From Paraspadella gotoi (taxonomy: Eukaryota > Animalia > Chaetognatha): a stretch of DNA of 64,000 nt. Numbering within the stretch: the first letter of the stretch is position 1; every line of letters begins with the position of its first letter. Under the pieces are notes generated by a model. That model searched no databases. It was not told the DNA's origin and saw only the letters and a list, made by a program, of their open reading frames with translations. The position numbers were made by a program, and so were the translations under genes. Below are positions 10,430 through 43,649 of this stretch, one piece after another. The stretch lies in NCBI GenBank assembly GCA_051294375.1, contig CM119263.1:5906382-5970381 (forward strand). The letters are read 5' to 3'.

Positions 10430-10650
10430 TGTGGACGAACAAGTTCAGATAAGAAATGATTATTCTTCACAACTTATAAAACAATAACAGCAAAATGCTC
10501 AGATGCTAAGTCTATTACAATGGTATTTACAAAGGTCAACGTTTGACATAAAGTCAACCGTTTTGACCATAAATAATTGGGAATGAGCGAGGTAGGTTGG
10601 TAAGGTCATGTGTTTGAACCAAGGTTGCGTGTTCTAGATGTTCGTCCACA
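10430..10650 (-). repeat. 3' LTR
   Basis: 11-bp terminal inverted repeats TGTGGACGAAC...GTTCGTCCACA; colinear with 15657-15883. Confidence 0.9.
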
Positions 10651-13600
10651 CATCCCCACCAACCTTTGACCGGTGGGAGAAGGCTTGAAAAGGTTATTGG
10701 ATTGCGTCGTCGGTTTCGTCGTCGTCTCCGGCGGCTGAAGCATCGTCGGAAGGAGTTGATAAAACCCGGATTGATGAAGATTGTCGACGAGCAACTTGCG
10801 GCGTCGTGGAAACGCGAGTGGCGCCGCTTCCGTTTCTGGAGCGGGGCATAGATGGAGCTGCTGAGACGCGCGGGCGACATGTGGTCGCGCCTGCGGTGGA
10901 TCAGGGAGTGCAACTTCCGTTTCGTGGACGAGCTGCTGAAGCACGCAGGGCGACCACATGGTCGCGCCTGCGGTGGTTCAGGTGGTGCGACTTCGTCGGT
11001 GACGCAAGGTTTTCAGTCGATCAACCGGAGATCACTTGACGCCGCGGCCCGGTATTTCGATTTTGAAAGTTTTGGGACAGTTCGAGGACGTTGTAAGGGC
11101 CGTCGTAAGGTGGTTGGAGCGGCGTCGAATGTCCGTCGCGTCGGACGTAGACGCGGTCGGCGTCAGCGAGCATTTCCGGCACATGAGAGGGTGGCGCCGC
11201 ATGCCAAGCGGCGGGCAGAGGCTGCATGTGAGCAAACATCTGCACGGAGATTGTCGAGTTCGCGCGCGGGGCGGCGTCACGTCGTTGTTGGGACCGGAAG
11301 TAGCTCTCCAGGAGCGTCAGAGTCTGCCCAGCGTTAGCTCTGCGGGGAGGCGTCCGAATCTTCTCGCGGAGTTTGCGCGGAGGTCAAGAGAGTCCATGGA
11401 AGCTGCGCCAGCCAGTTATGTCCGGTGGCGTCGCAGTGGGCGCGCAGGGCTGTCTTTAGCGTCCGATGAAGGCGTCGACCATTTCCCGTTGGATTGGGGT
11501 GGTAGGGGTTGTCGTGAAGGGGTCGAAGCCAACTACCGCCGGCCACTTGGCGCCACAATTCCGATGTGATTGGGGCGCCACGATCGGTTGGTGACAACGG
11601 AGGGGACGCCAAAGCGAGAGACCCAGTTTTTTGCAAGAGGCGGCGGCGACGGAGGCGGCGAGGTGTCACGAAGTGGTGCCGCTTCCGGCCAGGTGCGTGA
11701 AGCGGTCAATCATCGTCAGAGATGAGTATGACCAGAGACGGCTGGCAGCGGTCCCACCAGGTCGATATGGACGTGAGCGAAACGTTTGGCTGGTGGTTCA
11801 ATTTCTGGAGCGGCGCGCGGACGTGGCGCTGCGTCTTGGCGCGCTGACAAGTGTCGCATGACGCTGGCCCATCGTGCGATGTCGGATGAGCTGATGGCCA
11901 TACGAAGCGCTCGTCACGAGCTTTTTAGGATGCCGCGAACTACGGATGAGCGATGCCATGGGTGGCGTCGAAAACGCGCCGGCGCCATGACGCTGGAACA
12001 AGTGGGCGTGCCCGGGAGCCGGAGACATCACAAATGAGTGTTCGTGTTGCTGATCGGGACAGTTTTGAGACGGAGCGCCGTATGAGGGTCGTTGAGGAGC
12101 CGCTGGACATCGTCATCAGGGCTTGATCAGCCCCCATTGCCTCGAGTTGACTTGGAGGGCGCCGATGGCGTTGACGGTGGCGGGCAATGTCCTCACGCTC
12201 CTTTCTGCGCGTTCGAGCTCGCTTCAGTCGATCTGACGTTGCGGTGCTGGCGGAGGAGCTGGCGGGCGAAGAGAGGGCGTCGGCGACGACGTTCGCCTTC
12301 CCGGCGATATGACGGATGTCGGCCGGTGTATTCGGCGATGCCCGCCAACTGGAGGTTTGCCTTCATGGGTGTAGGTTCTGCCTTCTTCCGCAGCGCCGGC
12401 ACAAGCGAGATGTGATCGCTGAAAGCGTGAAGCGGCGTCCTTACGACATAGGGCGAAATGGCGGATCGATGCATGAGCAGCGAGAAGCTCCTTGTCGAAT
12501 GGCGCCATTTGCGCTGGTTTGGTTCAGTGGTTTGGAGTGGAACCCAAGGGTTGCCACTGGCCTTCGACGAGCTGTTCGAGGACGGCGCCGACGGCGACGT
12601 CGGAGGCATCGACTGTCAGGGCGAGAGGGGCGCCGTCGATCGGATGGACCAGCATGTGGATCGGCGAGGGCGTCCTTGATTGCCTGGAAGGCGCGTCTTG
12701 CGGGCCGCCAGTTTTGCGGCGCGGTATTTCCGCGGAGAACTTCAAGGAGAGGTCGAGATGATGTGCAGCGTGGGGCACGAATCGGCGATAGTAGTTGAAA
12801 ACCCAAGGAAACGTTGAAGTTCTTTGACACTAGTGGGCGTGGCCATCTCGCGTAATGCCTCTACCTTCGACGGAAGAGGGCGGACGCCATCCTTGTCAAC
12901 GATGTAGCCCAGAAACTCCAGGCTCGGAGGAACCGAAAACGCATTTAGCCGGGTTGACGATAAGGCCGTTGTCGGCGAGCGCGTTGAAGACGCGCTTGAA
13001 GATCCTCTTGATGCTCTTCGTGTGATGAGATGCCACCAAGAAGTCATCTAAGTAAACGAAGACGTGGGGAATGGCCGCTTAGAACTTGGTCCATCATGCG
13101 TGTGGAAGTCCTGGCCGGCGTTTTTCAACCCAAACGGCATGAGAGAATCATAAAGGCGAACGGCGTGATGATCGCCGTTTTGTGGCGATCTTCTTTCGCG
13201 ACAGGGAATCTGGATGATATCCTTGCAAGTCGATCTCGAGAAGACTGTCTTCCCGCGACGTCGGCGTTGAAGTCCATGAGGTGACGGATCGGGTAACGAT
13301 CGTCGACGGTCAGTCGCCACATGGAACGAGAGAGCCATCTGGTTTTCGGGTGACATGTGTAGCGCGACGCCCACGCAGACGTGAGCGTCCGGATAATCCC
13401 GAGTTCCAGCATTCTCGAACTCGGCCTTGGCGGGCGGCGAGCTGATCGGGGGCGAGGCGGCCGGGTCGGGGCAAGACGGGCGGACCTTTCGTCGGTATGT
13501 GATGCTCGAGCCGTGCTTGGGTGGCGCCGAGTGAAGACGAGTTTCGTTAGTTCCGGTCGCCCGTCGAAAGTCCGGAAGTAGGCGTCGCGGACGTGCAGGA

Positions 13601-15656
13601 CGCGGGGCGGCGCAGCGGCGGCGGTCGTGAGCATGCAGTTATGACCATGTAGTCGTCGAGATCGAGAGTATTCGGCGTTGGTTGATCAACGCCGAGATGA
13701 TGCTCCATCAAAAAGTCGGCCGCCGAGAATGGGCGTGGCGACGTCGGCGATGATGACGAGAAGGAAAAACGCGTTTCCCAATCTAATCCTCATCTCTTGG
13801 ATGCCGAAATTTCGATGGGCGTGCGTTAGCGGCGCGGAGTGGCGGGGCGTTAGCGGCGGCGAGCGCCGCTTTGACGGCGGCTGGGTCGCCTTTGCGGCGG
13901 CGTGGTCCAGCGGCAGAGGCGGGGATGAGCGTCGCCTCTGAGCCCACCGTCGACGAGGCCACTCCAGGCAGCGTCAGGGTTCCGCGCACTAAGAATAGCT
14001 TCGAGTCGTTTCGCCAGCGACGCGGGCGACTAGCGGCCGCTCGGCGTTGCTTTGACGGCGCATTGGCAGGGCGGCCATCACGGTTCGTCCGTGGCACTTG
14101 AACGCGTTGGCGCCAAATTGTAGTGGTAGAATAGCACTTGGCTTCTCCCATGGCGGTTCGCGGTGTGGCGGGGAGCGGGCGTTAATGTTGGCGCCGTTGC
14201 TGCTGCGTGCGCTGCTGCGATGGGCCGCTGCTGTGATGGCGCTGCTGTGGGAACGGGGCGCTGCGTGAGCGTGGCGGCGGCCGTCGAACTGCGTTCGCGT
14301 AGGAGATGGCGGCGTCTCAGCGTTGCTGCCGATTCATCTAGAAGCTCCAGTGGCTCGTCCGCTGGGACCTCACTGAAAGTGACGGCGTCACCGAGGAGAA
14401 GCTGCGGGTCGAGCTGCGGAGCTGGCCTGAAGGAAGGAAGAATTCGTCGGCGTTTTGGTGATGTCGGCGGGTTTTTTATCCTTCCTGACAGCGTGTTCCT
14501 GACGCTTTGAGGGAGGAGGCAGCAAGAATGGCAGCTTGATGTGGTCCATGGTGAGACCTTCCAAGACGGCGTCGATAGCGGAGAGGTGCTGGGAAGGAGT
14601 GACGCCTTTCAGTGACGTCATCTCACGCCTTTGCGGCACGTCTGTTGGCGTCCTCACCATAGATTTTCTGCAAGTGGAGAATCAAATTTTTGTAAGTTTC
14701 AGGCCTTCGTCGATGCGGAGACCATGTGGGATTAGCCGGTGGCGGAGATGGGGATGCGCTGAGAATGAGCGCCTTCTTCTCCAGCCGGCTAAGTGACGCC
14801 AGTGGCGCCCGAATTCCACAGCGGCGTGGTCTAGCACTCCTCGATGTGGTCTGGTCGAAGGTCGTCAGCTTGGGATTTCTCCTTCTTGCTGTAGCGGCTG
14901 GAGGGCCGTTGAGAGGGTCGGGTTGCCTGTGGGGTGGCGTCGCTGCGCCGTCTTCCACCGATGGAGGCAACTCCGTTGAAGCGGTGCTTGCATCCGCTGA
15001 GGGAGGTTGGGTCTTTCCGTGACCGCGGCGAGTTTGCTGTTTGATCTCGAAGACCATTTGGAAAAGTCTCTCGATTTGCGATTCCGAGAGGCGTCGCGGA
15101 CGTCGAGGCGGCGGCGTCGTGGAATGCGTCGTCGGCGGCCGGCGCTGTCGGATGGGAGGCGTTGCGCGTGGTCACGGCATCGTCGTTTCTTCTTCGTCGC
15201 GGGCGTGGAGGGCGTGTGACGCTGGGTGATGAGAAACGCGGCATTAAGAAGAAAAAAAAAAATATTATTCCACTTTGAAAAAATTATTTCCTTGAAAAGA
15301 AATATATGATTTGCTTTTTAAAAAATATCCAATTTAAAAAATATTTGTTTTGAAGAGTTGTATTGGCAAAAAACGATTCGAATCGAGAGAATTTAGAGAA
15401 GGGGAAAAAAAAAGAATTTAGCAAAAAAACGCGTAAAAGTTTTCTTTCTGAGTAGATTTAAATTAAAAAATTAATTTAAAAAAATGGTTTTGGATTAAAA
15501 AATTGGTTCGGCGATAAACGCGCGGAGTTTGTTTCGTTTTTGTTGAGAAGTAGTTTTCCTTTTTGTTTAGTTTTTTTTTTTTTTGTTTTTTTTTTTTTTT
15601 TTTTTTTTGTTTCGTTTTGTTTCTTTTTTATATTTTTTTCGTTCGGGCTCACCACG

Positions 15657-15883
15657 TGTGGACGCACAAGTGTTCAGAGTAAGAATGATTTATTCTTCAA
15701 CAACGTATAAACAATAACAGTCAAAATGCTTCAGATGCTAAGTCTATTACAATGGTATTTACAAAGGTCAACGTTGACCATTAAAGGTCAACCGTTTTGA
15801 CCATAAATAAGTTGGGGAAATGAGCGAGGTAAGGTTGGTAAGGTCATGTGGTTTGACAAGGTGCGTTTTAGATGTTCGTCACA
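15657..15883 (-). repeat. 5' LTR
   Basis: TGTGGACGCAC...GTTCGTCACA; PBS lies immediately inside at about 15643-15654. Confidence 0.9.
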
Positions 15884-18595: not shown

Positions 18596-19094
18596 TCAAT
18601 TTTTCTTCGGCTCCTCTAACCGAACCCTCCTGTCGAGCCTCTTGGCCTCAGTATCGATGCATCTTCTAAAGGGATACATTCGACGCGACGATCCTTCATG
18701 TCCACATTTGAAGACAATCTGGGCAGTTCTGGGCGGGGGAAGAGGAGGGAGGGGGGGGAATAGAATATTTGATTGCCTTATTAAAATGAATGAAATCAAC
18801 ATGAATTTGATCTTGGTTTTTAACTTTGGACTAGTCATTGGTGGATTGGGGCCTTCCTTCCTTTGCAAGATAAACCGGTGCTAACAATTTCTCACTTAAA
18901 ACTTTTTAATTATTTTTAATTTCGTTCGTGACACTTTTGCCAATGGAATGATTTAAATATCCGGAAAAAAATGGTTATGACTTTCGTTCGCTTTAAATCC
19001 CTAACGTCTTTAGAAAATTAAGACGTCCTTCCCTTTAATCAGGGTTAATGAGTTAAAAACGAAAAGATTTATTGAGTTTAAAAGGCGAAGGTTT

Positions 19095-19166
<72 letters not shown>

Positions 19167-20495
19167 ACAGAGAGACGGTTCACAGACCTGGAGTGAAGGT
19201 CGGCGAGTGAAACTTCGTAATTGTCGTGAACGTAGGACAAAACTGTTGTAAGTTTGTCGTCGAAAATGGCAAGGCAGCGTTGGATGGGTCCGGGACAGAC
19301 CAGAAGAAACTGGAGCTTGACCTCACCTATTGAGCTAAGGTTGGTCGTGTGTAAGTTAGGGTAGTTGTAAGGAATTAAATTAGTGGGAAGTAGAGCCCCT
19401 GATAGATACACAAATTTAAAAATAAAAACGCAATCAACAAAAATCCCACCATAAATTAATTTGCTAGCTCATTTTCTCAGTCACTCACTCACTCACTCAC
19501 TCACTCACTCACTCACTCACTCACTCACCCCATGAACCAAATGTGAATGGTTTGATTGTAGATGCAAGTTCTCCATCTGTTAAATCTCAAAGCCTCAGAG
19601 TCTAAATCGTCTTCGTCATTCTGAGGTCGCGCGATTGAATCCAGCGGAGTCAAACATTTTTCCAAGATGGCGGACATCGTTTCTTCGTATTCTTCCATCT
19701 GTCGGTCGAAGATTCAATTAGTGAATGAAAATTTAATTTATTTAGATAAAAAATTTTTGCATCCCGATTTTTAAAACATATTATATAATCCTTTCTGTTC
19801 CGTTGCGATTTAGAATTGTAGAGAAAGCAAAGTTTTATTTTTGTGTGACAAAACAAGGATTTTATTAGATATTAGCTGACATGTTTCGACATCCCCCTCC
19901 TTCATCTCCACCTTTTCTCTAAAAAGTATTTCTTCTATCGCAAACCTAATCCATCCCATCACCCTGTGAAGGCTGTAGTATTTTCTTTTTATTCCGACAC
20001 CCTGTACCCACCCCGACGCCGAATTTATAAAAGATCTTGGCCTTGGCGAGTAGAATCCCCCTGTAGTAAGCGCTACATTTGTCCGCTGGATTTTTGCGTC
20101 CGCATTGACGAAGGAATTGATCACGAAATGAGTCGGACAGACGGTCACGCCCATCGAGGAGCTCGCGGTAGATCACTCTGTAAATGGGAACATTCAATAA
20201 GAAATGAGATCGCCCCGTAGGTGATGGACGAACGTCTCTCGAACCGGAGAAACAAACGAATAAAGAGGTAAACGTTAAAGATGGCTATCATGTTCTTATC
20301 ACGTCACCTTGTTTTAGCACCGTCGACTGAATATCCTTTGGGAGCCTCCTCCTCTTCCTCTTCCTCCTGCGGTGGCGTCGTCGTTGTTGTTGTTGTCGTC
20401 CTCCTCCAGGAGCGGAAGGAAAAGCGGCGCCTCTGGCCGAAAGCCGACGCTACGAGACAAAGCAGCAGCAGGAAGCAGAACGGAGCAGCGCGCAT
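18596..20495 (-). CDS. Orphan secreted cysteine-containing protein, 4 exons, 224 aa
   Basis: Exons 20495-20308, 20177-19963, 19326-19188 and 18728-18596 have GT..AG boundaries, phases 2/1/2 and total 675 nt. Signal peptide MRAAPFCFLLLLCLVASAFG, then basic, poly-Thr and poly-Glu segments, then about 165 aa with 7 Cys. Confidence 0.75.
19479..19528. repeat. (TCAC)n microsatellite
   Basis: About 12 perfect units. Confidence 0.9.
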
Positions 20496-21678
20496 GCTGA
20501 GTGCGGGCGAAGCTGTTGGTGGAGAGGAGACGCTGAGGGAACGCTGGAGGTGAAATGATAAAATGCGAGAGGATGAAATGTGATAAATTTGAAAATTGAG
20601 AAGTGATAAAAATATCAGAAGTGATAAAAATTCAGTGATGAAACTGAGGGCTTTAAAAATAATTTGAGAGAGAGAGAAGAAAAGAGAAAGAAGATGAATA
20701 AAAATAAGAAGAGAAAAAGACAAAAAAAAAAAAAAGAAAATAAAAAGGGAAATAATTTCGGGGCGAAGGATTTTGAAACGACGCGCGGAAAGAGATGAGA
20801 AGGGGAGAGAATCTTTATGTTTAATTAAAAGAGAAAAAAATATTGAGAAAATTCGAAAAGAATCACGGACGGTAAACATTAGGATTCGTCGTCATCATCG
20901 ATGTCGTCGTCGTCATCGTCGTCGTCGCGGTCTCGATCGTCGGCTTCATCTTCGTTGCCTTTATCGTTGTATATAACCGTCAAGAACATAAACTAAATAG
21001 TAAATACATTTACGAATATTATAATTTTAAATCTAAATTGTGATAAAATGCTATGTAAATTAGGAATCTTAAGTTACTCACCGACCTGAATAATATTGTA
21101 TATGTAGATTCTTTTTTATGACAAAACCATTGAAGAGAGTGACGAGACTATAAGCTCATTTGTCTTCTTTAGTTAACTCCATAAACACTTCCAAAATACA
21201 GAGGCAGCACAGATCAGGACGGTTAAAAAAAAAGACAAAAGATCAGGATCTCAAGTTTAGACTTATAATATATAGATATAATATATAACAAAATATAATA
21301 TATGATATATATCAAATCAAATGTTTTTTTGATTTAATTTAAGATTAAGATTTTTTGTGTGTGTAAAACGGCAGTCTCGACTGGATTTTCGCGGATTTAA
21401 ATATAAGTCATCATAAAAAATATTGAACCAAATAAAATATATAAGAAGCGGTAATATTTTTTTTTTCATTTGCTTAAAAACGCTAAAAAAAATTAACAAT
21501 TACCTTTTTCTCTTTCCATAAAACTTCGCCTAATCTTGTTCCTTTACACAATTTTATTTCAAAAACAAAAATAATTTTTCTCCCTTTAAGTTTTTTTTCT
21601 TATATTTTTTCTGCGCTAATATTTTTTTCGCCAAAAAATTCTCGAACTCCTTAATTAAAAGATCCTTCTGGCCTCACG

Positions 21679-24600
21679 ATGCCACTCTTCTCACTCAAGA
21701 ATCCCTTCGACGAAGCGGTGGAGGCGGCGACGCCAGCGGAAAATCCTGAAAATGAAGGAATTATCGTTTCTCGGTTTCTTCCCGTCGCCGATAAAATCGA
21801 CGCATGCGCACCAGGTCATTGTTGAGGTTCCCAGTTATTCTTGTAGATGTTTTTGTCCGGCGTCCTAGCTAAGTTTTGTTTATTTTTTTGTTTTCAAACA
21901 GTTTAAGTAAAATCAATAAAATTATCTAAATTTAACATGTAATATAGCGGTAATTACTTCAAAACTTTTATTTACAAAATTTTGAATGTCAACTATTTTT
22001 TGTAAAAGAAAGAGTCATAGTTTTTTGACAAGCATTAGTATTTCTACAAATGTTAGACAAGAAGAAAGTTTATTCCCAATTATTTCAATCAACAGTTTTG
22101 ATAAGGTCTGTTGTTGTCTCGATGCAGTCGTCCAATTTCTGCGCAGAATTCCAGCTGCTCTGCGTCGACAATGAAGCGGCGCTGAGTTGCGCGCGCGGCC
22201 AGCACTGTCGCTGGCAGATGCAGCTTCCCTTCCGCCTCCACCTGCTGCATTATATTAAGCGCGACTACAAAGAGGCCTGACTTGTGGCACCCATCGAGGC
22301 AGTGGACGAGCATTTTGGCGCGATTCTCTGGAAGAGTCAGCAAGAGGCGATTCACCTTTAGAAGGACCTCATAGAACCTCATGTGATCTGGCAGATGGTC
22401 GTCCTCGGGCCAACAATCGACGCTGATGTGCGTTAGATCAAAATCATCATTATCTTCCTTTGGACAGACTCTCATTGATCGCTTTGTCAGAATCTCATCA
22501 ATGCGATCCTTATTCAAACTTTCAACTTTCATCAACTTGAGCTTCTTTTTTGTTTGAGGCCAATAATCTGGAGCCCCGTCGGATCTGCAATTCAGTGCAA
22601 CGATGACTCCAAGTTGTTGCTCCATGACCAGAGTCCAAAAGTCGTCCACCGTGTTCTCTAAAGGCGCTTGAGTGACGATGCAACCGGCCTTCATTAAAAA
22701 TGTGTCAACGAATCCTGCATTGATGTATGTGTTGCCATCTGGAGGAATAAAGGTGGCGATATGCAACATGGAGTGGTCCTGGTAAAAAGGGCCATCTCTG
22801 TAGCGGTTCTTATCAGAATTCTCTGTCATCATTGAGAAAGAGGACTTGGTTACTGTGTGATCAGAAATCAATCCAAGACGATCAAAGAGCTCTGAAAACT
22901 CAGATTGACTCTGATGCCTGCCATTCTCATGTTTCAAGTTAGTCCCACAGTGAATTGCCAGTGCATTGTATACAAGTTTATATTGAGTAGACGTCTGCAC
23001 CATTTTAAACCTAAATTGTCGCATATGTCGAACAGTAGAGCTGACATTGACGACACCTAGGGATTCTGCTTCATCAAGCAAGTTCCAGATTGCAATACAA
23101 GTGCCGGTCCTACCAACGCCGGCGCTGCAATGAACAAGGATAGGAGAATGAGGTGGTTTGCAAGAGATTCTGGACGAGACGACGAATTGACGAACCACAT
23201 GAACAAATGAAGCTATTGTTGATGGTGTACGAGGAATGTCTTTGTCTGGCCATGAAATGAAATGGTACTGCATGACTCTTCGTGGAAGAGAGAGAGAACC
23301 ATCTTCGTTTTCCTTACAAATGTACATTTCACGGATGATATAATTAGAGCGATAGTTTTCATTCTCCAGCCTGACGGAGACACCGCCGAAAGAAAGAGAA
23401 CAGCCAATCCCCTTGGGCCAATATTGCTCACACTTTTTTTTGCCTTCCTCAATCAAGTTGGTAAGCATCACCAACACTTTCACATTCTGCTGCCAGATCA
23501 TCAACCAAAAATCGTCTACAGTTGAACGGCGTGGACCCTGACTGGCTATGAATGCTTTTTTTTCAAAGAAGCCAGGGATGTAATTCGCATTTATGTAGTC
23601 GGATGAAGAATTATCCGTCTTTTTGTCAGATAATTTGTCATTAATCTTGAGGTTGACATACATTTGATTGTCATCTCCACTATCAGAGTTTTCTTGATGG
23701 AGAATTACTCTCGAGTGATCATAGGCAGGGATATCCTGAAATCGATTTTTTCCCTTGTTCTCAGGACGGCTCGACACTTCATGTCCAAACTCAATTTTAT
23801 CTGGAATCGAAGAATATTCTTCTTTAAAATCTTTCGCACTTCTTTCTTCTCCATAAACAAGATTGAAGATATCCTTGACTGAAATGGATCCAACATCTGA
23901 GGCTTTGGCCCAAGTGGCACGCGGAGGGCGCGGCTGCGGGGGCACAACCGCCACTCCCTCGTTACGTGTCTTAGGCAGTGGCTTTTGCCGACCAGATTCT
24001 TCTCGTTGCATCGAAGTATTAAAGGCGATGTTGACGCTGCCCCGATTTTCGGCGGAGAAATTGACGGATTGCGTCGAGTTTCGAGAGATTTTTTTCGATC
24101 GACGGCGAAATAAAATAACAATAGTGATAATTACGGCTAAACAAATGACGAGAGACAAAGAGATGATAAATGGTACAACCCATTCTTGTGAAGAAGGAAC
24201 GCGATTGACTAATTTGTAAACCATCAGCGTTCTATTTTCTTGCATTCCATCCACTTCAGTTTCAATGATGAAACTAAGTTTGTAGGTTTTACTTCCTGAC
24301 AAACGGTTTCCCTCGCAACTTCCGTTTCTAACGATGCCATTCAAAATCTCCACCGGTTTTCCCAAATTTTCTTGTTTTGTGAAAACTGTGATAGGAACGT
24401 TACTGTTAACAGTTTTGCAAGCTGAGTTTGTAGATCTTCTGTGTCTCAAGTGTGTAGCATAATCCTTTTGGTCTTTATTATCTTCAAATGCAATTATGAG
24501 GATTTTTACGACATTTTTATCAGGCCAAGTGACAGGCGCTGGGATCAGACAAACTGCATCGATATCACAGATTATATCATCTTTAATAAATGAAGTTAAC

Positions 24601-27600
24601 GTTACATTTGGCGTTTCAATTTTACATGTTTTTCCAAAATATGAATTTCCACAGTGGCATGAATAATCACCACAAGAATTGGCACAACTCTTACCATTGT
24701 GACATGGATTGTTTTTGCATTCATCTATGTCAACACAAAATCCTGTTGATGTTTCCTTTTCTTTACAAATTTCGTCCGTAGTTAAATTCCAATTTAGCCA
24801 TTCAAAATCCTTTTTATTTTTTGAAATTTGTTGGCAGGTGATTATGTTTTTTACTTTGTTTGACATTTCGTATCCTTTTTTACATGATAAGTTGCACCGA
24901 GAATTATGGAAAGTTTTTTCTGTACAGTTCACATTCCCAATCCCTTTTTTGGTTGTTTTGCTGATAATTTCCGGAAGAGAGCAATTAACGGGATCGCATC
25001 TCGTGGGAGTAATTTCTTTCCACGAAGCCTGGTGATTTATTTTAGCTTGATGACAGTTGAAATTCCCGCCAATACGATAATAACCGGCTTTGCAATCAAT
25101 AGTACAATTTGAGTTGAACGAAGACGAACAGTCAGGATCTTCAGCATTCTTTACGGTGATTGGTTCATAGCAAGCGACTGCTTTACACTTTGGGTATGAG
25201 AAATAGCCCATTGGATTTTCTTCGTCTTCACCTTGTTTACAAACAGAAGTAAGGTTGTCAAAATCTGAAATCCATTGTCCTAACTTACATTCAAATAAGC
25301 ACGAATGTCTGTATTCATAACGGGTATCTGATTCACACGTTTTTAGCACAGTTGTTTGAGATATGTCTTTTTCCTTAATCTGACAATAAATCTTGTTGCA
25401 AGAGGCTAAATTGTTTTTCCAATTTGCATCTTGAGATTCACCTTTTTTTTCCTGTTCACAAAATCGATTCTTTGTGCCGTTTCTGTAAAAACCATCATCG
25501 CATGAGACAGAACAGTAGGTTCCAGCAACGATATGCCCTTTTGTGCAATTAGACTTAGTATTCTGTTTTTTATAGAGATTACAAACTGCTTGACCCAGGC
25601 AATCATTTCCATAATGGCCGTATTTACAAGTTGATGGGCAAACTCCTGAAAAGGTGTTGCACTTTTTTGCGCCAGAACAATTACATTCTAGCGTGCAATT
25701 TTTGCCATAATGTTCATTTTGGCAATTATTATCATTCTTGTCTAATTGTTTTAGAACCAAATCGTCAATGGAAATGCCATTTTCATGGATCGATATTTTA
25801 TGACTAGCTTTATCTGATATTAAAAATTCTTCATATTTTGACCAATTGTAACTTTTTGTCAGAGAAATACTTTGTTCATTGATGCCAATAAAAGTTGAAC
25901 TACGAGAAGAAAGGTAATAAAAGAAACTGAGCTGAGTATCAATTTTCGAATTTAAGTAAATGTCCCTTTGAACTTTATATTGGTTCGTTGCAAACTTTCC
26001 ATTGCAAGCAGTTAGACAGTATTCATAATAATTCTTCTTATTTGACGAGGGTTGGGCATCAGCAGTGCATCCCCCATTTTTTTTATCACAATAGCACCAA
26101 TCTCCCTTTTTATCATTATCAGTTAGCGTACATGAATTGCCCAAATATTTGTCTTTGCTCCACGGCAAACACTTAATAGATTTTCCTTTCGTATTAAAAT
26201 GTTCGTCTCTTAAGATACTTTCCGTTTTTTTGCATTTCTTTTCATAGTAGATGATAGGATACTTAATTGCTGTATAATCTGTTTTGGCGTTTTTATTTAT
26301 TCTAAAACCATAACACTTAAATTTTTTATCATTTTTTACACTTGCGAAGAAAGTTTCGCCCTGTTTAGTGTACAATGTGACTCTATCATTGATGCAGGTT
26401 TCATCTTTGGAACCAAACAGAAAGAAGGAGTTGTCTTTTCCTTCTGGTGCATAGTTTGAAAACTTGCTAGTATGTATATTAAAGGAGAATTTAGAGAGAG
26501 AAAATGGTTCATTGGCGCTGAACCAAATTGATTCGTTTGTCGCAATTTCTTTATTTTTCTTTGCGCACCAATAACCACCATCATAGAAAGCTTTTTTTGG
26601 AAGATACCCAGAGTCGTACACTGATGATGCCCCAACCGTTCCTTCGTTCTCAAAAAAGGGTTTATCCAATTTGACCTCCTCTTCCCCAATGGCCAACGTA
26701 TGATCTCCGATTGGCCCTTCCATCTTTGTCGACCCCACGCTTCCCCATCCGGTCTCGATGCTCCAACCAGAACCAAATTCCGTCTCATGAATTTTTGATG
26801 CTGCAGAATCAAAGTCGACTTTTGCTGCTTCGCAAGCAAACCGCAATTTAGAATTGCAATCAAATGTCTCCAAGCACAGTGTTGGGGAGGTCTTCTGCTT
26901 GACCCAAGCAACGCAATCGTGGTCTTTTCCTTGTGGTGAACGACACCAGGGAAGAGGAAGTTTAGTTGAGGAAAATCTGTCTTGGTTTTGATTCCACCAA
27001 AAGTTGACGTCTGATCCTCTTTTAAAAAATCCCGTCCAAACGCGGAGAGGATTTTCGATCCGTGAGTCGGGCGATCGACGTCGTCGGCGATTTGACTGTG
27101 ATTCCGGGATGGAAATTACATTCGGGTATTGGGTGGCATTTGCAGGGGATGGGAGAGAGAATTTTCCTTCGGGCGTTGAACCGACGAGATTAATTATAGC
27201 TTCGTTGCTTGGGATTGCTTGGTTTGCAAGCTCTTTGTAAATTGTGAAATTTGTGGCGTTTGTTATTTCAATATTCGTAATTGGAGCAAATGTGGAGGCG
27301 ACTGAGGCTGTGGTTGCATCGATTGTCGCTCTGACAGTGGTTGCTTCTCGGTTGGCGACTGAGGTCGTGGTAACAACATTTGTGGCTCCGGCAGTCGTGG
27401 CGTCTTGGTTGGAGACTGAGGTTGTGGTTGCAACGTTTGTAGCTCCGTAGTCTGTGGTGTCTTGGTTGGCGACTGAGGTTGTGGTTGCAACATTTGTGGC
27501 TCTGGCAGTTACGGCATCTTGGTGACTGAGTGTTGTGTGCAACATTTGTGGCTCCAACTGTCGTGGCGTCTTGGTTGGTGACTGAGGTTGTGGTTGCAAC

Positions 27601-28354
27601 GTTTGTAGCTTTGATGGTTGTGTTGTCTTGGTTGGCGACTGAGGTTGTGGTTGCAACATTTGTGGCTCCGGCAGTCATGGCGTCTTGGTTGGTGACTGAG
27701 GTTGTGGTTGCAACGTTGTAGGTCCGGTTGGTTTTGTGGTAAGTCGGCTTGGTTGGTGACTGAGGTTGTGGTTGCAACGTTTGTAGGTCCGGTGGTTGTG
27801 GTGTCTTGGTTGGTGACTGAGGTTGTGGTTGCAACGTTTGTAGCTCCGGTGGTTGTGGTGTGTTGGCTGGTGACTGAGGTTGTGGTTTTAACGTTTGTAG
27901 CTCCGGGGGTTGTGGCGTCTGTGTTGGCGATTCTGGTGACGGCAGAGGATTTAGTTTGGGTTTCAGCTGACGTCGGTTGCTGCAAAATTGTCTTCAATGT
28001 CGGAAGAAATGCTGAGTCACTCTCGCGATAGGATTCCTCTTGAGATCCTTGTCTCCCGAACAATGAAGACAATGGCGCGAGAACTGAAGCAACCTTTGGT
28101 TCTTGAAGGACAGAATCCTCAGTTGTCTTTGTCATCGACATCCCGAGTGCGTCGTCGTCCACGACGTCTTTGAGGCGTTCGATGGAGAATCGCGAAGACG
28201 CGAGTCTGACGCCAAATTTAGTCCAACATCTTTCAACCGATTGTCGCCAGTCGAGTCGCTCGTCCACGATGGTTAATGGAAGAATCTCAGGGCGAAGAGG
28301 AGAGAAGAAGAGAGGGAGAAGGAGGAAGATGGATAGGCAGCGCATGGTAGAGAG

Positions 28355-28403
<49 letters not shown>

Positions 28404-28698
28404 ATTTTCAAAGAATTCCACGTAATTTCAGTTTTCTTTTTTTTTCCGATTGATTTCGATTCCGATTAAAGTTGATCAAAAAAATTCTGAAGTGACGGAC
28501 TTTGCCATGATCCTTTTTTAGAAGTATGCTTCTCAGATAATGACTCTTTCTCTATCAGTGACTCTGTCTCTCGCTCGGACCCGCTTGAGTTTCGAATTAG
28601 TTTTCGTCATCGAGATAATTTACGCGATTTTTTTTCAAGCGGAACTTGAATGGTTTTTACCCGAGTCATGAGGGATAGACTTATGGATAAAAAAACAA

Positions 28699-28767
<69 letters not shown>

Positions 28768-31700
28768 GAGTCAAACAGACAAATTAAATATAAAAATTAT
28801 GAGAAGAAAAGAGAAAAATAGCCACACCTGATAAAATTCCCAGCTGGACTAAAAAAGATTGAAATTGAAAACAAGAATATCTATAATTATAATATTATAA
28901 TAGAATAGAAATATAAATATAACCGTTAACTATGTATTCATAAACTAGTGGATGAATTGACTAACCCTAACCCTAAACGACAACCATAACAACAACTTAT
29001 ATTGACAATCAGGATCAAAAGCGAAATCAACAGCCTGTTCCGATTGCCTTCGTTCAGTTTGGAAACGCGTCAAGAACAACGATTCTTTGGTCAGATGAGT
29101 CTCTGTCTCTCTCTGTCTTTGTTTTAGTCTTTGTCTTTATCACTTTTTATCTGTGTCACTTTGTCCCTCATTTTGATTCTTTGTCTATCTGTCAGTCGGT
29201 CTTTTTGTTTTAGTTCCTTTTCCCTTATATCAATTAACTTTGTTTATTCCATTTCCTGTTGCCTACGAAATTCTGCTGAGTATAAAGCGTCATAAAAAGG
29301 AACGATTCGAAGAGAACGAGAGAAGGGATTTTTTTCTCATTGATGTACTGTATGAAAGTTTCAAGGTTACTTGTTTTAGCATATTTTTGAAGAAAATTTG
29401 TTTAAATATTAGAAAAATACAGTTAATACTTTTGTCAATTAAAGAAAAAACTTTTAAGTTAGCACAATATATTTTAAGAATCTAACAATAAAATTTAGTA
29501 TTATCTACTTTTAGCATATTTGTGAATATTTTAAAGTGTGATGGAGGTTAGTGTTGTCTTTTGGAAATAGAGGGATCATCTAAATTTCTTAATTTTATCT
29601 AATTTTTATATACTTTTCATTCAAATACCATCGATTTGTTTAGAATGAAATCTTATGGGCTTTTTCGTCATTAAAATTTGTATGCAAATTATTTATTATT
29701 ATTTGTTTATATTAATTTTTTATCAGTCAAAGTGATCAGTCGGAATGAGTCAGAGTATTTTTTACAATATCCCGATTCATTTAGGTTTAATCCTTCTCCT
29801 TCCGGTCATTCATTTTATTTTGTCTCCCTCGATACCAATTTTTCGTTAAGCATTAATATTTAATGAGCACTTGGAATCATTTTATCATTTTCCTCTTCCC
29901 CAGGTTGGACTCCACGCGGTCTCCCTTCTCGACTTCCTCGTCAAGAACGCCGGAGTTCAGTTCCTCGGAGTTCTTGATGATCGAGATTTCGTTTTGAAGA
30001 TGAGCGACTTCGTGAAGACAAAATTAGAGGAAAAGCAGCAGCACCACAAACCGGTCGCAGAGTCCCTGAAAGGTGAGCACCACCGCGGCACCACTTTCCG
30101 GTCGCAGAATCCGTGAAAGGTGGTTGTACAACCCCTTATGAATTGCCTATATTAATCGAACAATATCATTTTGAAAGTAATGAGAATTTGAAATTTGATT
30201 AACAGAGAAAGAGACATACAAAATTACCAACCAACCAAGAAGTGACTCGAAAGTTTCTCGCAACGGAAATAAAAAGAAAATTGATATTTTAATTATTTGT
30301 TTAATAACAAAGGCTAAGTAAAACATCTTTAATCAGAATAAAAACCCCCAACTACAGCGCGCATCCAAGAATGGGCTGAAGGAGAAATGAAGCACATAAC
30401 TTGGATTCCTGTTGGTCCATTTGAGGAAAGAAGAAAAGAAAGGAGCAACGTCAGGGGTCTATATAACATCATGAGGAGACAGGGGTGAGAGAGATAAATG
30501 GAAAGATAACAATATTACGTGTTTAAGTAATTTTTATAATTATGAAATTTCAACAGCCAATATAAAAATTATTCATTCTCTTAATAAAAGAATAATAATA
30601 AAATCGCAGGTCCTTGCAAGTCTTTAATCCAGTCTCTCTCACAGTCTAGTTTATTCACTATCGATTCATCTGGCTTCTCTGTTAATAAAGTTGTATAATG
30701 TTTCAAAGAAAAGAAAAAATATTTAAATTGTATAAAAGGATTACTCTATTATGTTATAAATATAACGATATTTTTTCTTTCTCTTAGTTACTCGTTTCCG
30801 CCTTTGAAATTCGTCGATTCTTTGGCATCAGAAACAACGATGGAATCAGAAATCGAGAGAAGAGAAAAAGAAGAATTGGACAGAGCGATTCAGGTCTTTG
30901 TGATTCAAATCTTCAAATCTTCAAATCTTCAAATCATCGCCAAATCATCGCCAAATCATCGCCAAATCGTTTAGGGTCATGGTGATTCTTGTTGCTGTTT
31001 ACTTTAAAACTTTGATTCTTTAAATTATGGAAATCGCCTAATCGCCAAATTTCCTCATCTCCAAACCCCCAGGCTTCCTTGCGCGAAACTTCGCTTCCAA
31101 AATCTCCGCCGCCTCCTTACGAATTTTCCGTCCCTGCACACGTCAATGCTCCATCGCACGCATCAACTTCCGCCTCGCATGCATCGACCTCCGCTTCGCA
31201 CGCTGCGTCACCTTTTTCCCACGCAGCGCCAGCTTCTGCGGCGGAAATCCGTTCTACACAGAATCGGGCAACTTCCATTTATCCTGGATATCAAATTTGT
31301 GAGAGTCACATGAAAATGACATCCTGATGTCATGAAGAAATGCGAAAGAAGACATAAAATTGACGAGATTGAAAACTGTTATAACTTTGATGTGCGATCA
31401 ACACAAAAAAGTTATGGCATGAAAAGGACGATCTTAAGGCATGCTTGGCTGAGCTCATAACCCTCTAGCTTTTTTATCTATCAAGGACTAATATCAATGT
31501 CTCTGCTTGTCTCTGACCGACATTATTTCCTCCCTGCAGTGGCCGACAATCCCTGGCCGCCAAAACTCGTCCGCGCCATCTATGACTTCGAAGCGATGGA
31601 GGCCGACGAATTATCTCTCTCCGTGGGCGATCTCGTCAAAATCTTTGACGCCACCGACGCGAGTTGGTGGCGTGGGAAGAACGCCACATCCGGGGGGGAG

Positions 31701-32814
31701 GGACTGTTCCCCGCCTCATTTGTGGAGGAGGAGGGGAAAGGGGGAGAGTAAGAGAGGGTGGGAGGGGAGGAAAACGTGAGAAGACTGAGGGGAAGGGAGA
31801 AAGGGGAAGGGGGAAAAAAGGAGGTGGTTGGAGGAAGGTGAAACGTTAGAGGGGAAGGAGAAGAGAAAGGGGGGGGAAGTAAGAGGGGAAGCGGAAGGGA
31901 ATAGATTTGAGAGGATAGTTAGAGGAGGATGGGATTATGAAAAAAAGGAACGAGAAATGAAGGGAAGAGGGAAGGAGAGAAAACATCCTCATGTTTTGAT
32001 TCTTCACCCGAGGAGGCGAAAACGTCGTTTTTCCGCTTTATTTCTTTCAAGAAAAAACGAGAAATTCACGAAGAAAGAGGAGGGAAAAAAAGAAAGAAAA
32101 GAAGAGAAGAAAAGAGAGGAAGAGAAGGAGAGAAAAGAGGAAAGGGAGGAATCTCCCTCGATGGTGGCGCCAGTTATCGACGAGGAAAAGATCAAGAGGG
32201 CGCTTCACCTCATTCAACACGTCGATCCTTCGCGAACGAAAGACGAGGATGAAGATCGAAAATTGGAAGAGTTGGAGGCGAGTTTATTGGAGGGGGGCGT
32301 GGGGGGGGGGAAGTGATCAGCTGGAGAGTCAATTGAATAGGGAAATTAGATTTTTAAAATGGTATCAAAATACAATTTTAATAAAGGTTATATTGAATAT
32401 CAAAATAGCTTTTGAAAGCAGGCAGTAGGGTTTTCTTAAATGATAGATATACCATTTTGTATTGTTCAGTGTTTAATGTACTTCCTTCTTCGTATTTTTT
32501 TCCCCCACCGCCAGACGGAATGCCTGGCCATGGGGCCCGAGATCGACGCTACGCTCGAGGCGACGGACAAGCGACATCTGGAGATCATGGATTTGAACAA
32601 ACGTCTGGCAGATGCATTACAGATGTATCACTTTCTCATGATCAGAGAGAAACAGGCGCAAGGTAAGGGGAGGAGGAAGAGGATGAGGAGGAATTGGAAG
32701 ATGACATAAATAATTGAATTAAAGATTTGTAAACTGAAATTAATTAACTAAAGATAGACATTTCTTCCTTAAGATGGCTCTCTGCCCGGAAATCCACAAT
32801 CGACATTTGGTTAG
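21679..32814 (+). CDS. STAM: STAM (signal transducing adaptor molecule, ESCRT-0): VHS-UIM-SH3-GAT/coiled coil, 10 exons, about 487 aa
   Basis: Exons 21679-21814, 29013-29089, 29904-30072, 30358-30484, 30788-30893, 31073-31298, 31540-31747, 32052-32277, 32515-32662 and 32774-32814 total 1464 nt in consistent phase. Motifs: MPLFSLKNPFDEAVEAAT, DCLRSVWKRV, UIM EKEELDRAIQASL, SH3 VRAIYDFEA...WWRG...GLFPASFV, GAT IDEEKI...CLAMGPEIDATLE. The last exon is least certain. Confidence 0.9.
22089..28345 (-). CDS. Intronless receptor-type protein tyrosine phosphatase (about 2085 aa, tandem D1/D2), nested antisense in STAM intron 1; two frameshifts in the repeat region
   Basis: ATG 28345 starts a signal peptide (MRCLSIFLLLPLFFSP). 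Three overlapping ORFs join across frameshifts near 27745 and 27535. TM helix at about 24108-24180. D1 has KNRF, DYINA, WPD, HCSAGVGRTG and QTSTQY. D2 has KNRY, WPE and HCLDGCHKSG. Ectodomain contains CTL, MAM, F5/8-like, kringle-like, EGF, 4 Sushi-like and cbEGF motifs. Confidence 0.92.
27290..27925 (-). repeat. Coding 45-bp tandem repeat (15-aa mucin-like unit ATNVATTTSVTNQDATT.G), about 12-14 copies
   Basis: Repeated GACTGAGGTTGTGGTTGCAAC at 45-bp period. Confidence 0.92.
28699..28766. repeat. (GATA)n microsatellite
   Basis: About 17 units. Confidence 0.9.
30540..30720 (-). mobile_element. Diverged interspersed repeat, possible Penelope-like 3' fragment; same family as 34650-35080
   Basis: Shares TATGAAATT..CCAATATAAAAA and GCAGGTCCYTGCAAG..CTCTCTCACAGTCT.GTTTATTCACT with 34650-34890. 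The minus strand reads ...NKLDCERDWIKDLQ, weakly like the 'E..WI..L' end of a GIY-YIG domain. Confidence 0.45.
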
Positions 32815-34307: not shown

Positions 34308-35141
34308 ATGGCGAAATTCGGTTCAATTTTCGCTTTGGCTTTTGTCTTCTTCCTCATCGCTCAATGTTTCGCCGATAATGGATCAGGTTTTTATTATTGA
34401 TACATTTTAAACCAAAGTATTATTATTATTACTTAATCAATAATCATAATTAATTTTTAAAATTTGTTGTTGTTTTTCTCAGGCGAAAGAAATAAAAGAG
34501 AATCAGAAGATTCTGATTCTTCGGTCAACGAACTTTATGGAAGGTAAAGACTTTTTAATTATTAACAATAATTAACAATTGATAAAGACGATAATTATTG
34601 TCGGTTGTGAAGACATAGTATACCACTGTGCAAGTGAGAAGTGTGAGTGCATATGAAATTGGTACAACCAATATAAAAAATAAAAAAATTTTCCATTCAT
34701 TTAATAAATAAGCTATCTTGCCCCTGACTTTGGACAGGCTTTGGTGGTTTAAGGCCTCCATCACTCTTACAAGATAATGACATAGCAGGTCCCTGCAAGC
34801 TTTCAATCAAGACTCTCTCACAGTCTCGTTTATTCACTCCCAGAGTACCTGGCTTCCCTATCAATGAAGTGGAAAATATTTCAAAGAATGTTTCAATTGT
34901 ATGAAAAGACCACTCCCTTAAGTATTAGATCGGGGAATACTTATCGAACTCCGCACTAGCATCAAAATAAAAGGAGCTGAATTTTATGAAATTGGTACAA
35001 CCAATATAAAAATTTTCCATTCATTTAATAAATAAGCTATCTTGCCCCTGACTTTGGACAGGCTTTGGTGGTTTAAGGCCTTTTTCTTTCGACATTTTTT
35101 TAATTCTTGAGAAATTCTTTTTTCAGACAGTTTAATATTAT

Positions 35142-35197
<56 letters not shown>

Positions 35198-35432
35198 ACT
35201 TTCTGTCTGAATATGAACAAAATAGGAATTGATGTCATAGTAATTTTAAAGACCCTTAAAAACCAAACAAAATGATATTAATTACTCTCTTCCACAATTC
35301 CAATTCCATTCCAGACCCTCCCATTACCAATTCGAGATGTACAGACTTGCTGCAGTCTTTGGTTTTATCGGATTTGCTGTCATCATGGGATTCGTCGTCT
35401 ACAAGCTATGCAGCACTCATAACATACAGTAG
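34308..35432 (+). CDS. 85-aa single-pass membrane microprotein, 3 coding exons
   Basis: Exons 34308-34386, 34483-34543 and 35315-35432 total 258 nt (phases 1/2) and give MAKFGSIFALAFVFFLIAQCFADNGSGERNKRESEDSDSSVNELYGRPSHYQFEMYRLAAVFGFIGFAVIMGFVVYKLCSTHNIQ*. Strong AAAAATGG start context. Confidence 0.72.
34650..35080 (-). mobile_element. Interspersed repeat with a partial tandem duplication (34652-34757 and 34985-35080), Penelope-like
   Basis: A ~100-bp near-identical direct repeat; the longer copy is homologous to 30540-30720. Confidence 0.5.
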
Positions 35433-36826: not shown

Positions 36827-40127
<3,301 letters not shown>

Positions 40128-41282
40128 AATTGCACTGACGAAACGAGTTTTGTTTTTTTTTCTGTTGTTTTATTTAATTTTAATTCTCATTTTTAATTCT
40201 ATTTGTTTCTTTATTATTCTTTCGTTGATTTTGAGTTCAAAAATCTTTCGTCAAGTTTGGATTTTTTTTTTTTTTTTTTTTTTGCTTCATTTACATAACG
40301 AGCAATAAGTTCGGCAATTCTCTCTGTCTCTGTCAGCCGGACATTGCGACGTCGGAACGAGAGAAGAGACGTGAGAGGAGAGAGATGAGGGAAGGAGGAC
40401 TGAGGAGAGACGAGGGATCTGACGAGACAGGAGAGAGGAGGAGAGAGGAGAGACGAGAGAGAGAGAGAGAGAGAGTAGCCGTTTTCTGATGCAGTTTCTC
40501 TTTGCTCGTTTTAGTTACGCAATCAACTTCTGGAGAACATTTCTTGTTTCTTTCCAACTAAAAAAAATAATTGTATACCAATCAATTTACCATTCAATCA
40601 ATCAATAAAATCATTTCGGGCTCCCGTTCCTCTTCGTTTTTTTTCTCAAGCAGCTCGTTCTCTTTTACAAAATGAAAATTTATTGGGAGCCCGAATTTCA
40701 GAGCTCGACTGATCCAGTGCAGCTGAAATGCGGCTGAGCTGCGGTCGGGCTTGACAAAGCGGCGAATGCGGCAGCGGACAGAGTTTAACATTTCGATTCA
40801 CGATTAATTCAATGGGTTTTTTTTTTCAGCGGAGATAATTGGCAATATGGTACTTAAATATGTCTTTATATTATATTAACTTTAAAAGTGTTTTAACTGC
40901 CCAAATAGTCGTTTTAAGAAATAAAAAACGCTAAACTATAGGCGGGGTGAACTTATGCAATGCCCGACTACATTTCTATATTTTCATGACAAAAAAGTTA
41001 TATTTCTTGTCTAACAATAAGAAAATTGATTACAATTTTACTTCATTCTTGTTATTACTCTTTTAATGTTTTATTATTTCCAGCGACGGTCGCGAACCCC
41101 GAACTTTTCCGTCCACTCGATTTCGGCGTCGCGCGAAGCAGGTCGGGCTCGCAAGACCGCGGGAGGGCGATCGAGCCGGTCGGGTCGGTCGTGCCCGTCA
41201 GGCTGCATTCCGTCGCGGCCGCGAAACGGAGCGGCCTCTTTACTGTCGAGGGTCGTTTAGAGTTTGATGACATAACAAGTTC

Positions 41283-41411
<129 letters not shown>

Positions 41412-42030
41412 AAGAGAGAAAGAGAGAGACACCTTTTTAAATTTGAAAATCCTGAATATCGACGATGAAGAAAACTGGACGTGATCAAAAGAGAGGTAAT
41501 GAAAGAGAGGAAAGGTAATAAAGGGTAGAAAGAAAAAAAAGACAAGAAATGAAAAAAGTAAAGAAAAGAAAAGAAAAGAAAGGAAAGAGAGTAAAGGAAA
41601 GAAAAGAAAGGAAAGAGAGTAAAAAATAGAAAAGAAATGAAGGAATGTAAAGAAAAGAAAAGAAATGAAATATTGTATAGGCAGAAGAAAACGAGAAGAA
41701 AGTAAAAAAAGGAAACATATATTTCCTAAAAAATGTATATTAATTTGTTAAATGTTTTTTTTTGTTGCCATTTCCGTTTTTTGTCGTCGTCATTTTTAAA
41801 CTTCGTCTTCTCCGTCGATATTTTTATTTACATACACCGCCTTTCTTTTGCATCGTCGTTGTCGTTGTCGTCTTCGTCGTCGTCGAAGACACATCGTCGT
41901 CGTTGTCGTCGTCGTCGCCCCGTCGTCGTCGCCCCGTCGTCGTCGCTGTCGTCGTCGTCGTCGTCTACGTCGTTCTCACATTCACCGATTTCACCATCTG
42001 CTCTTTTTTTTCGCGTGAGTCAGATTCCGC

Positions 42031-42049
42031 CACGTGATTCTGTCACGTG
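42031..42049. promoter_or_regulatory. Tandem canonical E-boxes with a 7-bp spacer
   Basis: CACGTG-ATTCTGT-CACGTG; the second box lies within the palindrome GTCACGTGAC. About 1.9 kb upstream of the nuclear receptor ATG. Confidence 0.45.
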
Positions 42050-42729
42050 ACTTCAATGATTCATAATCATAAAACCGGATTTCTCTCTTAATTCTTTTTT
42101 TTTTCCTTTTTCTTTTTTTTTTCATTTTTCCTCCTTCCTTCTTTCCTTCCTTCCTTTCTTCTTTCGTTTCTCTCTTTCCTTCCTTCCCTCCTTCCTTCTT
42201 TCCTTCTTTCCTTCCTGTTTTACGGCTTCTTTTTTTCTTTTCCTTGCCTTCCTTCCTCCTTCCTTCCTTCCTCCTTCTTCCTTCTTCCTTCCTTCCTTCC
42301 TTTCTTCCTTGTTTACCAGCTTCTTCCTTCCTTCCTTTCCTTTCGTTCCTCCTTCTCCTTCTATCCTTCCGTGTTAGTTTGCCTTCGCGCTTCTCTGATT
42401 TCCTTTCCTTCCTTCCTTCCTTCCTTTTTCCTCCATTCCATCTCTTTATTATCCCCGTATATATTTTCCTGAGCCTTCTTCATACCCCGTGGCCGAATTG
42501 TTTATATATATATATATAATATGTTTGTAAACTTTGTTAATTCTAGAAAAGAATCACTTTCCACTAAAAAAAACTAAAATAATCAACATTAAATCCGAAG
42601 AATCAAAAGTGAAAAACTGAGCAACAGAAAAAATCCTTTTAACTTCTAAGACTCTTTGCCTCTTTTTCCGACTTCCTCTTTTTACCAAAAATGTCACCCA
42701 AACTTTTTTTCATTCTACCGATTCACGCA

Positions 42730-43296: not shown

Positions 43297-43355
<59 letters not shown>

Positions 43356-43611: not shown

Positions 43612-43649
<38 letters not shown>

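Follow-up and report, generated by a model that had tools for sequence, protein, structure and literature searches.

How does a receptor-type protein tyrosine phosphatase (RPTP) gene come to lie, apparently in one exon and on the opposite strand, inside an intron of another gene, and can it still function there? The question is raised by a stretch of 64,000 nucleotides from the chaetognath Paraspadella gotoi (GenBank assembly GCA_051294375.1, contig CM119263.1, positions 5,906,382 to 5,970,381 of the forward strand), hereafter the window, in which a phosphatase coding span sits antisense within the first intron of a likely STAM gene. On balance, and with some reserve, we think that this nested single-exon gene is an old copy of a spliced mRNA that was inserted in a STAM intron 1 of ordinary size and that functions as a receptor phosphatase gene in its own right. 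Its position, strand, motifs and unbroken RNA-like cover form the direct basis, from which we infer an assembly error in a repeat, an RNA-mediated origin, catalytic activity and independence from STAM. According to this scenario, the spliced mRNA of an RPTP gene would have been copied and, long ago, inserted antisense into STAM intron 1. The phosphatase would have a transcription start of its own near a (CT)n tract and be transcribed as far as its own poly(A) signal, and STAM splicing would remove it as part of intron 1. The predicted product is a type I surface receptor of ~2,085 residues, with an adhesion or recognition ectodomain and two phosphatase domains, the first of which (D1) would dephosphorylate tyrosines and the second (D2) would be dead. 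Its place inside STAM would be positional, with no signalling partnership.

The first step is to establish whether the phosphatase lies within STAM. The host gene was read as follows, in window positions:

21679-21814, plus strand: likely STAM exon 1, with ATG, 45 codons and a GT donor in phase 1, in frame with exons 2-7.
21815-29012, plus strand: STAM intron 1, 7198 nt, GT..AG.
29013-29089, 29904-30072, 30358-30484, 30788-30893, 31073-31298 and 31540-31747, plus strand: STAM exons 2-7.
Within exons 2-7, plus strand: VHS, a UIM-like helix (by eye) and SH3; GAT-like exons continue to ~32660.

Exons 1-7 joined give 349 codons with zero stops, and exon 1 joins in frame to exon 2 (AG acceptor) over the 7198-nt GT..AG intron, confirming an earlier note in which these exons were said to flank a 7.2-kb intron. 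That note also put the remaining STAM introns below 1 kb and had the phosphatase fill 87% of the first; both statements hold, as introns 1-6 measure 7198, 814, 285, 303, 179 and 241 nt (179-814 nt after the first), introns 7-8 are below 1 kb by eye, and the phosphatase takes up 6257 of the 7198 nt. Pfam returned an SH3 match in exon 7 and a VHS match in exon 3 (E 2e-4, below cut-off) that begins at profile position 61; exons 1 and 2 contribute 71 codons, about the length missing from the VHS profile match. Among solved structures, the best matches of the SH3 were GRB2 first, then STAM1/STAM2. Exon 1 queried alone had no match in Pfam, PDB or Atlas, several single STAM exons had none in PDB (apart from the SH3 matches), profile and structure searches gave no match for the UIM and GAT read by eye, and a STAM homologue search over 44 candidates returned a single unrelated SH3 protein. 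The exon 1 translation resembles what we take to be the N-terminus of STAM. From its sequence, this VHS-SH3 gene is likely STAM.

Four of nine read sets containing locus sequence were mapped on 21000-31750, none of them recorded as RNA. X1 is a DNA run, and X5 was treated as DNA-like because it covers STAM introns unspliced. X7 is RNA by guess only and X6 is labelled "DNA?"; their contigs are identical and were counted as one data set, X6/X7, the RNA-like set. Contigs carry neither strand nor expression level. The 21814^29013 splice junction, which the earlier note had proposed to check, was absent from all four sets, although exon phase and frame fit it. The RNA-like set had no contigs on STAM exons, which we did not take as STAM silence.

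Could the phosphatase then lie outside STAM, either because 21679-21814 is not its first exon or because the region is misjoined? Exon 1 matches nothing on its own, its donor GTCATT is weak, and the microsatellites (AG)n at 28346-28410 and (ATAG)n at 28683-28781 are unbridged by contigs. However, phase and length fit, other STAM donors (GTCAGA, GTCTTT) are no stronger, and a single X1 contig (21000-27412) carries both STAM exon 1 and the phosphatase, while another (28782-30933) links exon 2 to later exons. In-frame stops lie immediately upstream of exon 2, and no credible alternative first exon was found between the phosphatase and exon 2, the single candidate having 16 codons. With exon 1 and the phosphatase on the same X1 contig, a misjoin at the two microsatellites could alter only the length of intron 1. 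We consider a location outside STAM highly improbable, and read the nesting of the phosphatase in the VHS-SH3 gene as real, with the splice junction itself deduced from phase and frame.

Three of the six measured STAM donors are non-consensus, namely GTCATT (21815-21820), GTCAGA (29090-29095) and GTCTTT (30894-30899), which suggests relaxed 5' splice sites in the P. gotoi genome. Short high-copy repeats, with a summed DNA-run depth in the thousands, occur in STAM introns 2 and 4 (29543-29582, 30588-30710), and similar sequence recurs near 34680-35080.

We then asked whether the nested gene is intact. Its main elements are:

22089-28345, minus strand: receptor tyrosine phosphatase coding span, 6257 nt, ~2085 codons, with the frame broken in the assembly within a repeat.
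28289-28345, minus strand: ATG and predicted signal peptide (hydropathy only), directly after the (CT)n tract.
27297-27930, minus strand: 57-bp tandem repeat, 11 copies, Thr-rich, with indel-bearing units at 27773-27710, 27595-27538 and 27537-27487.
21967-21972, minus strand: AATAAA, likely polyadenylation signal of the phosphatase.

The phosphatase had been taken for one open frame, which was not borne out: the long open reading frame (ORF) spans 22089-27674 (1861 codons), and the ATG at 28345 sits in another frame, which meets a stop at 27509-27511. Three of ten measured repeat units are off-length (64, 58 and 51 nt), with a net shift of +2. The two frames flanking the break encode two halves of one domain, contiguous in the homologue P0264, and the reading frame remains open over ~1,780 codons and keeps its catalytic motifs, against 41% identity to the orthologue-like protein P0121. 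The frameshifts are likely long-read assembly errors, because the lesions are indel-only and other raw-read-like sequence is present in the window. Comparison of repeat units 2 and 3 shows 9 gap bases and 0 substitutions, and that of the two long terminal repeats (LTRs) of a nearby retroelement 24 gap columns and 2 mismatches. Next to an N gap, the sequence 50513-55593 copies 37402-41857 at 78-81% identity, with gaps numbering in the hundreds.

Alternatively, the frameshifts could be real, leaving a recently broken, still transcribed gene that yields only a 278-residue secreted peptide. The assembly does show the net +2 and the stop in the ATG frame, and no listed contig reads the repeat interior, all of them ending at the repeat edges. 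Every lesion falls, however, within this single stretch, which is beyond the resolution of short reads; over the preceding 5.4 kb, read contigs agree with the assembly gap-free, and the same indel-only noise is seen in other repeats of the window, so that a genuine break seems to us very unlikely. An assembly error at the repeat would lead annotators to call a truncated or broken gene. A single X5 variant at 22325 (Asn to Asp) gives no measure of selection.

Is the phosphatase transcribed, and without splicing? In X6/X7, one unbroken 5484-nt contig (21960-27443) runs over the phosphatase with no differing letters or gaps, stopping 129 nt beyond the stop codon and 7 nt beyond AATAAA, and further contigs cover 27757-27843 and 27815-28345. 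Depth in this set is zero at 21000-21717, 28539-28897, 29616-30333 and 31052-31750, where the DNA run X1 mostly continues. This pattern is that of an unspliced phosphatase mRNA, and the phosphatase is likely transcribed. The absence of introns claimed earlier is supported over 22089-27443 and 27757-28345, in total 5944 of 6257 coding nt (95%), but not over the uncovered 27444-27756 (313 nt). Likewise, the unspliced antisense transcript that was to be looked for has its counterpart in the unbroken RNA-like contig, whose strand the contigs do not give.

Two joints found only in X6/X7, 22312-23488 and 27040-28247, were considered as splices and rejected: their ends are not GT..AG, their sides are ~22-35 nt, and their loose ends encode other PTP-like residues, so they are not splices of this gene. 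Such short-sided joints suggest that paralogues are expressed or that the sample contained other organisms. That the whole mucin-like insert of the ectodomain (described below) is an intron was ruled out, as RNA-like contigs cross both of its borders.

How, then, were the introns lost? RPTP genes are usually intron-rich, and one cDNA copy would be the simplest way to shed all introns over 6 kb. One report describes introns in the ectodomains of R3 RPTPs, in partial support of intron-rich RPTP genes (PMC5336234). Intron 1 minus the RNA cover leaves 145 + 667 nt (~810), similar to intron 2 (814), and because the remainder is of that size, insertion into an ordinary intron fits. The neighbouring genes were all said to be split, and this is confirmed for the P450, nuclear receptor, STAM and secreted-protein genes, with the LTR retroelement as the expected exception.

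Several observations weigh against an old mRNA copy working as a receptor. No target-site duplication was found, the longest word shared being 8 nt (466 of 500 shuffles reach at least 8), nor a distinctive poly(A) relic, the A-rich tract at 21870-21894 being one of 43 alike in the window; as such marks fade with age, their absence speaks only against a recent event. No intron-bearing parent gene was found, no whole-genome search for one having been made, and long unbroken ORFs occur in relatives (855 aa within a contig of 3041 nt, 685 aa within one of 4664 nt), which, if these contigs are DNA, fits an already intron-poor family. No listed contig spans 27444-27756, leaving room for a small intron or a real lesion; X7 is RNA by guess, X6 is labelled "DNA?" and their contigs are strandless; and none of the four read sets showed the 21814^29013 junction.

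These points bear on a second origin, in which the family was intronless earlier, or lost its introns stepwise in place, and a DNA-level move into the STAM intron followed, with no retroposition there. In its favour are the long branch and old split from P0121, the missing retrocopy scars and the long unbroken ORFs of P0121, P0395 and P0297, which cross several domain borders. On the other hand, the contigs of these relatives could be RNA, with an unrelated tail at the end of several ORFs, neighbouring genes retain many introns, so that the genome is not intron-purged, and a single cDNA would explain total loss over 6 kb most simply. We regard this origin as unlikely, though deserving of serious attention. 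Retroposition, for its part, is plausible but old and unproven. Of the earlier proposal that a retroposed or otherwise intron-purged RPTP had been inserted, the unspliced antisense nesting and the insertion-like intron size are thus upheld, while the marks of a retrocopy are absent.

What kind of receptor does the gene encode? The catalytic part was read as:

22959-23759, minus strand: PTP domain D1, predicted active, with WPD, HCSAGVGR and Q-loop intact; KNRF replaces KNRY.
22125-22877, minus strand: PTP domain D2, predicted inactive, with WPE and Cys-X5-Lys in place of Cys-X5-Arg; borders approximate; a C-terminal YxN motif follows.

Pfam returned two Y_phosphatase stretches, and hydropathy a signal and one helix, as in a tandem-domain receptor PTP, the signal lying across the frameshifted repeat. 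In D1, WPD is at 1475, HCSAGVGR at 1515 and QTSTQY at 1560. The F of KNRF (motif 1) is also present in P0121, as are the D2 lesions. We predict that D1 is active and D2 dead, a pairing described for tandem RPTPs (PMC7959691).

The ectodomain, with the membrane helix, was divided into:

28154-28288, minus strand: first half of a likely C-type lectin; residues 20-64 match P0264 residues 21-65 (36% identity, E 4e-8, pairwise).
27048-28153, minus strand: mucin-like Ser/Thr-rich insert of ~370 codons (1106 nt, Ser+Thr 28-38%), ending near polybasic RRRRR.
26820-27047, minus strand: second half of the likely C-type lectin, matching P0264 and the lectin region of P0253; end approximate.
26238-26660, minus strand: discoidin / F5-8 type C / CBM32-like beta-sandwich, with a fold match to 4a42_A and a match to the F5/8 region of P0253.
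25590-26162, minus strand: kringle-like, MAM-like and EGF-like modules (tentative, borders approximate).
24627-25589, minus strand: sushi repeats (~5 by cysteine pattern; Sushi E 7e-6, two stretches) and one calcium-binding EGF (EGF_CA E 0.006).
24099-24188, minus strand: predicted single transmembrane helix, with an RHRR site ~85 residues before it.

The mucin insert is missing from P0264, near residue 70 of which the long ORF resumes. Lectin fold motifs are spread over the two halves, in a region where the structure model is not confident, and the second half alone had no Pfam match. As the EPN/QPD sugar-binding motif is absent, the split domain may not bind sugar; judging from one cysteine in the first half, its halves would be held by the usual long disulphide. 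By eye, discoidin domains interrupt the lectin domain of krill P0253 at this same loop, which therefore tolerates inserts. The discoidin-like model aligned with 4a42_A over 114 residues (Z 10.1, root-mean-square deviation 3.0), the model itself being of low confidence (mean pLDDT 47). The homologue P0292 gave a weak Kringle match (E 0.005), and the MAM-like and EGF-like modules were read by eye from motifs; MAM and kringle folds were not among the structure-search matches listed, these lists being filled by one domain. The best matches of the sushi region were sushi-repeat proteins. The membrane-proximal domain had no match to a custom RPTP profile, and its fold model had a pLDDT of 30. In all, the predicted ectodomain is a multi-domain one of ~1,390 residues with no Pfam match to Ig or FN3, and its predicted domain mix is unusual.

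Where the receptor belongs was assessed from its relatives. Full-length matches had 26-38% identity among the at least 120 listed and were mostly LAR-type; the shorter proteins among the matches listed were mostly PTPRE-type at ~32%, the exception being P0121 at 40-41%. The phosphatase and P0121 have in common the membrane-proximal domain, a Tyr-bearing D1 insert, the D2 lesions and the YxN tail. In a tree of 21 rows (an earlier tree had 33, of which 12 were omitted as long or redundant; no R2B rows were included), the two formed a 100/100 clade on a long branch. The approximately unbiased (AU) test rejected a grouping with R4 (p 0.002, or 0.007 once CD45 was included) and with R2A, or LAR (p 0.0001), tests that long branches may bias. 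R4 receptors (PTPRA/PTPRE) have a short glycosylated ectodomain, and here a ~1,390-residue multi-domain one was found; of the MAM-Ig-4xFN3 ectodomain of R2B (PTPRK/M/T/U), a MAM-like motif was seen by eye only and no MAM, Ig or FN3 was matched. The gene thus appears to encode an RPTP outside R2A and R4, with an ectodomain unseen in the searches run.

About ten fragments among the homologues tile the ectodomain. P0395 / P0297 represent a receptor that lacks a phosphatase and, besides a short Tyr-rich tail, carries modules like those of this ectodomain (discoidin-, MAM-, EGF- and sushi-like), and the family may pair catalytic with non-catalytic receptors. A metagenome scan gave 62 loci, none orthologous, the best long segments having 26-40% identity; as a rough control for the intron-richness of RPTP genes, taken whatever the taxon, contig ends and DNA or RNA nature of the loci, 43 of these 62 had no D1 segment that ran unbroken for 100 residues, while in 5 one of at least 200 was present. 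Given the long branch and an orthologue-like protein at 41% identity, the gene is old, and it belongs to a lineage-restricted receptor family. In open-licence literature, supplements aside, we found no report of the locus, of an intronless RPTP or of such an ectodomain.

Finally, does its place inside STAM matter? The earlier note had suggested transcriptional interference or co-regulation. Such a nesting would be selected: phosphatase transcription would run on into the STAM start and damp STAM, or enhancers would be shared. The geometry is suggestive, the phosphatase transcript ending ~140 nt from STAM exon 1, and both proteins, as is generally known, act in phosphotyrosine signalling. Three studies bear on the matter. 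Nested genes of C. elegans can drive host transcription (PMC12274878). In Drosophila, however, where nearly 10% of genes lie within nested structures, which mostly arise by insertion (71% antisense, 37% of those single-exon), nested pairs share expression and GO (Gene Ontology) terms no more than random pairs (PMC3814207), and in mammals, where first introns are favoured for nested genes, strong anticorrelation is rare (PMC11694760). At the locus itself we found no evidence of interference or co-regulation, and nothing supports a functional STAM-phosphatase link; we rate mutual regulation as quite improbable, and an independent phosphatase remains the reading that we prefer.

The rest of the window holds further genes and repeats. 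On the minus strand are a cytochrome P450 gene (6800-9958) of several exons, one intron of which has a 20-21-bp tandem repeat near 8560-8830; a secreted-protein gene (18600-20482) of ~5 exons, head to head with STAM, whose product has a signal peptide followed by runs of Thr and Glu and no Pfam match; and a nuclear receptor gene (36900-40130) with zf-C4 and ligand-binding matches and introns. A small three-exon gene on the plus strand (34309-35432) encodes a signal peptide and one hydrophobic helix (by eye). The LTR retroelement (10430-15883) has direct repeats 5.2 kb apart and a reverse transcriptase-RNase H match, is likely of Ty3/gypsy type by eye, and has frames broken by many indels, likely assembly noise. 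At 45440-50480, a poly-C run and garbled retroelement-like sequence precede the N gap and resemble raw read ends. After the gap, 50513-62000 repeats the nuclear receptor region 37402-43700 at 70-81% with dense indels; this is likely a false duplication of raw long-read sequence, and its copy of the nuclear receptor probably does not represent a genuine gene.

The arrangement alone matters little. The protein matters more, with mucin inserted in a lectin-like domain, and a 6-kb single-exon RPTP offers a clean case for how large intron-rich genes lose all their introns. The poly(A) site 140 nt from the STAM first exon makes interference directly testable. A bolder and distinctly unlikely proposal would join these threads: an undescribed invertebrate RPTP subfamily, intronless since an ancient retroposition, whose lectin is opened by a 370-residue mucin loop, which the disulphide of the lectin itself holds and furin cuts, and whose transcription ends on the STAM promoter, tuning ESCRT-0 sorting in the cells where the receptor is expressed.

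Compared with known receptors, the phosphatase resembles tandem RPTPs (PTPRA/PTPRE, LAR, PTPRK) in its single membrane pass and its predicted active D1 and dead D2, its best solved matches being PTPRA and PTPRE; unlike them, it has an ectodomain without Ig/FN3 match and no introns seen. It also carries a polybasic site close to the membrane and a YxN motif at its C-terminus, both of which have been described for R3 and PTPRK receptors. P0001 (Mercenaria LOC123524141) and P0007 (Bulinus) likewise combine tandem PTP domains with sushi and F5/8-type domains. In the tree the phosphatase clade has P0001 as its sister (100/99), a join between long branches that may be false; P0001 differs in its 31% identity, in having one short sushi match between the ectodomains and in lacking a split lectin. 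Furrowed-like and fucolectin-like lectins have the same lectin-discoidin-sushi order (moderately high similarity of Atlas clusters, 0.76-0.77, a lead only) but no phosphatase, whereas here the lectin is split by mucin and the usual sugar-binding motif is absent. As for the nesting, opposite-strand nested genes of Drosophila, C. elegans and mammals (PMC3814207, PMC11694760) are similar in that a whole single-exon gene lies within the first, longest intron; the phosphatase differs in its size, 6.3 kb against a median coding length of ~0.9 kb in Drosophila, and in filling 87% of the intron. The arrangement is thus an ordinary nested gene of a known kind, large for its class, and the receptor is a new RPTP variant.

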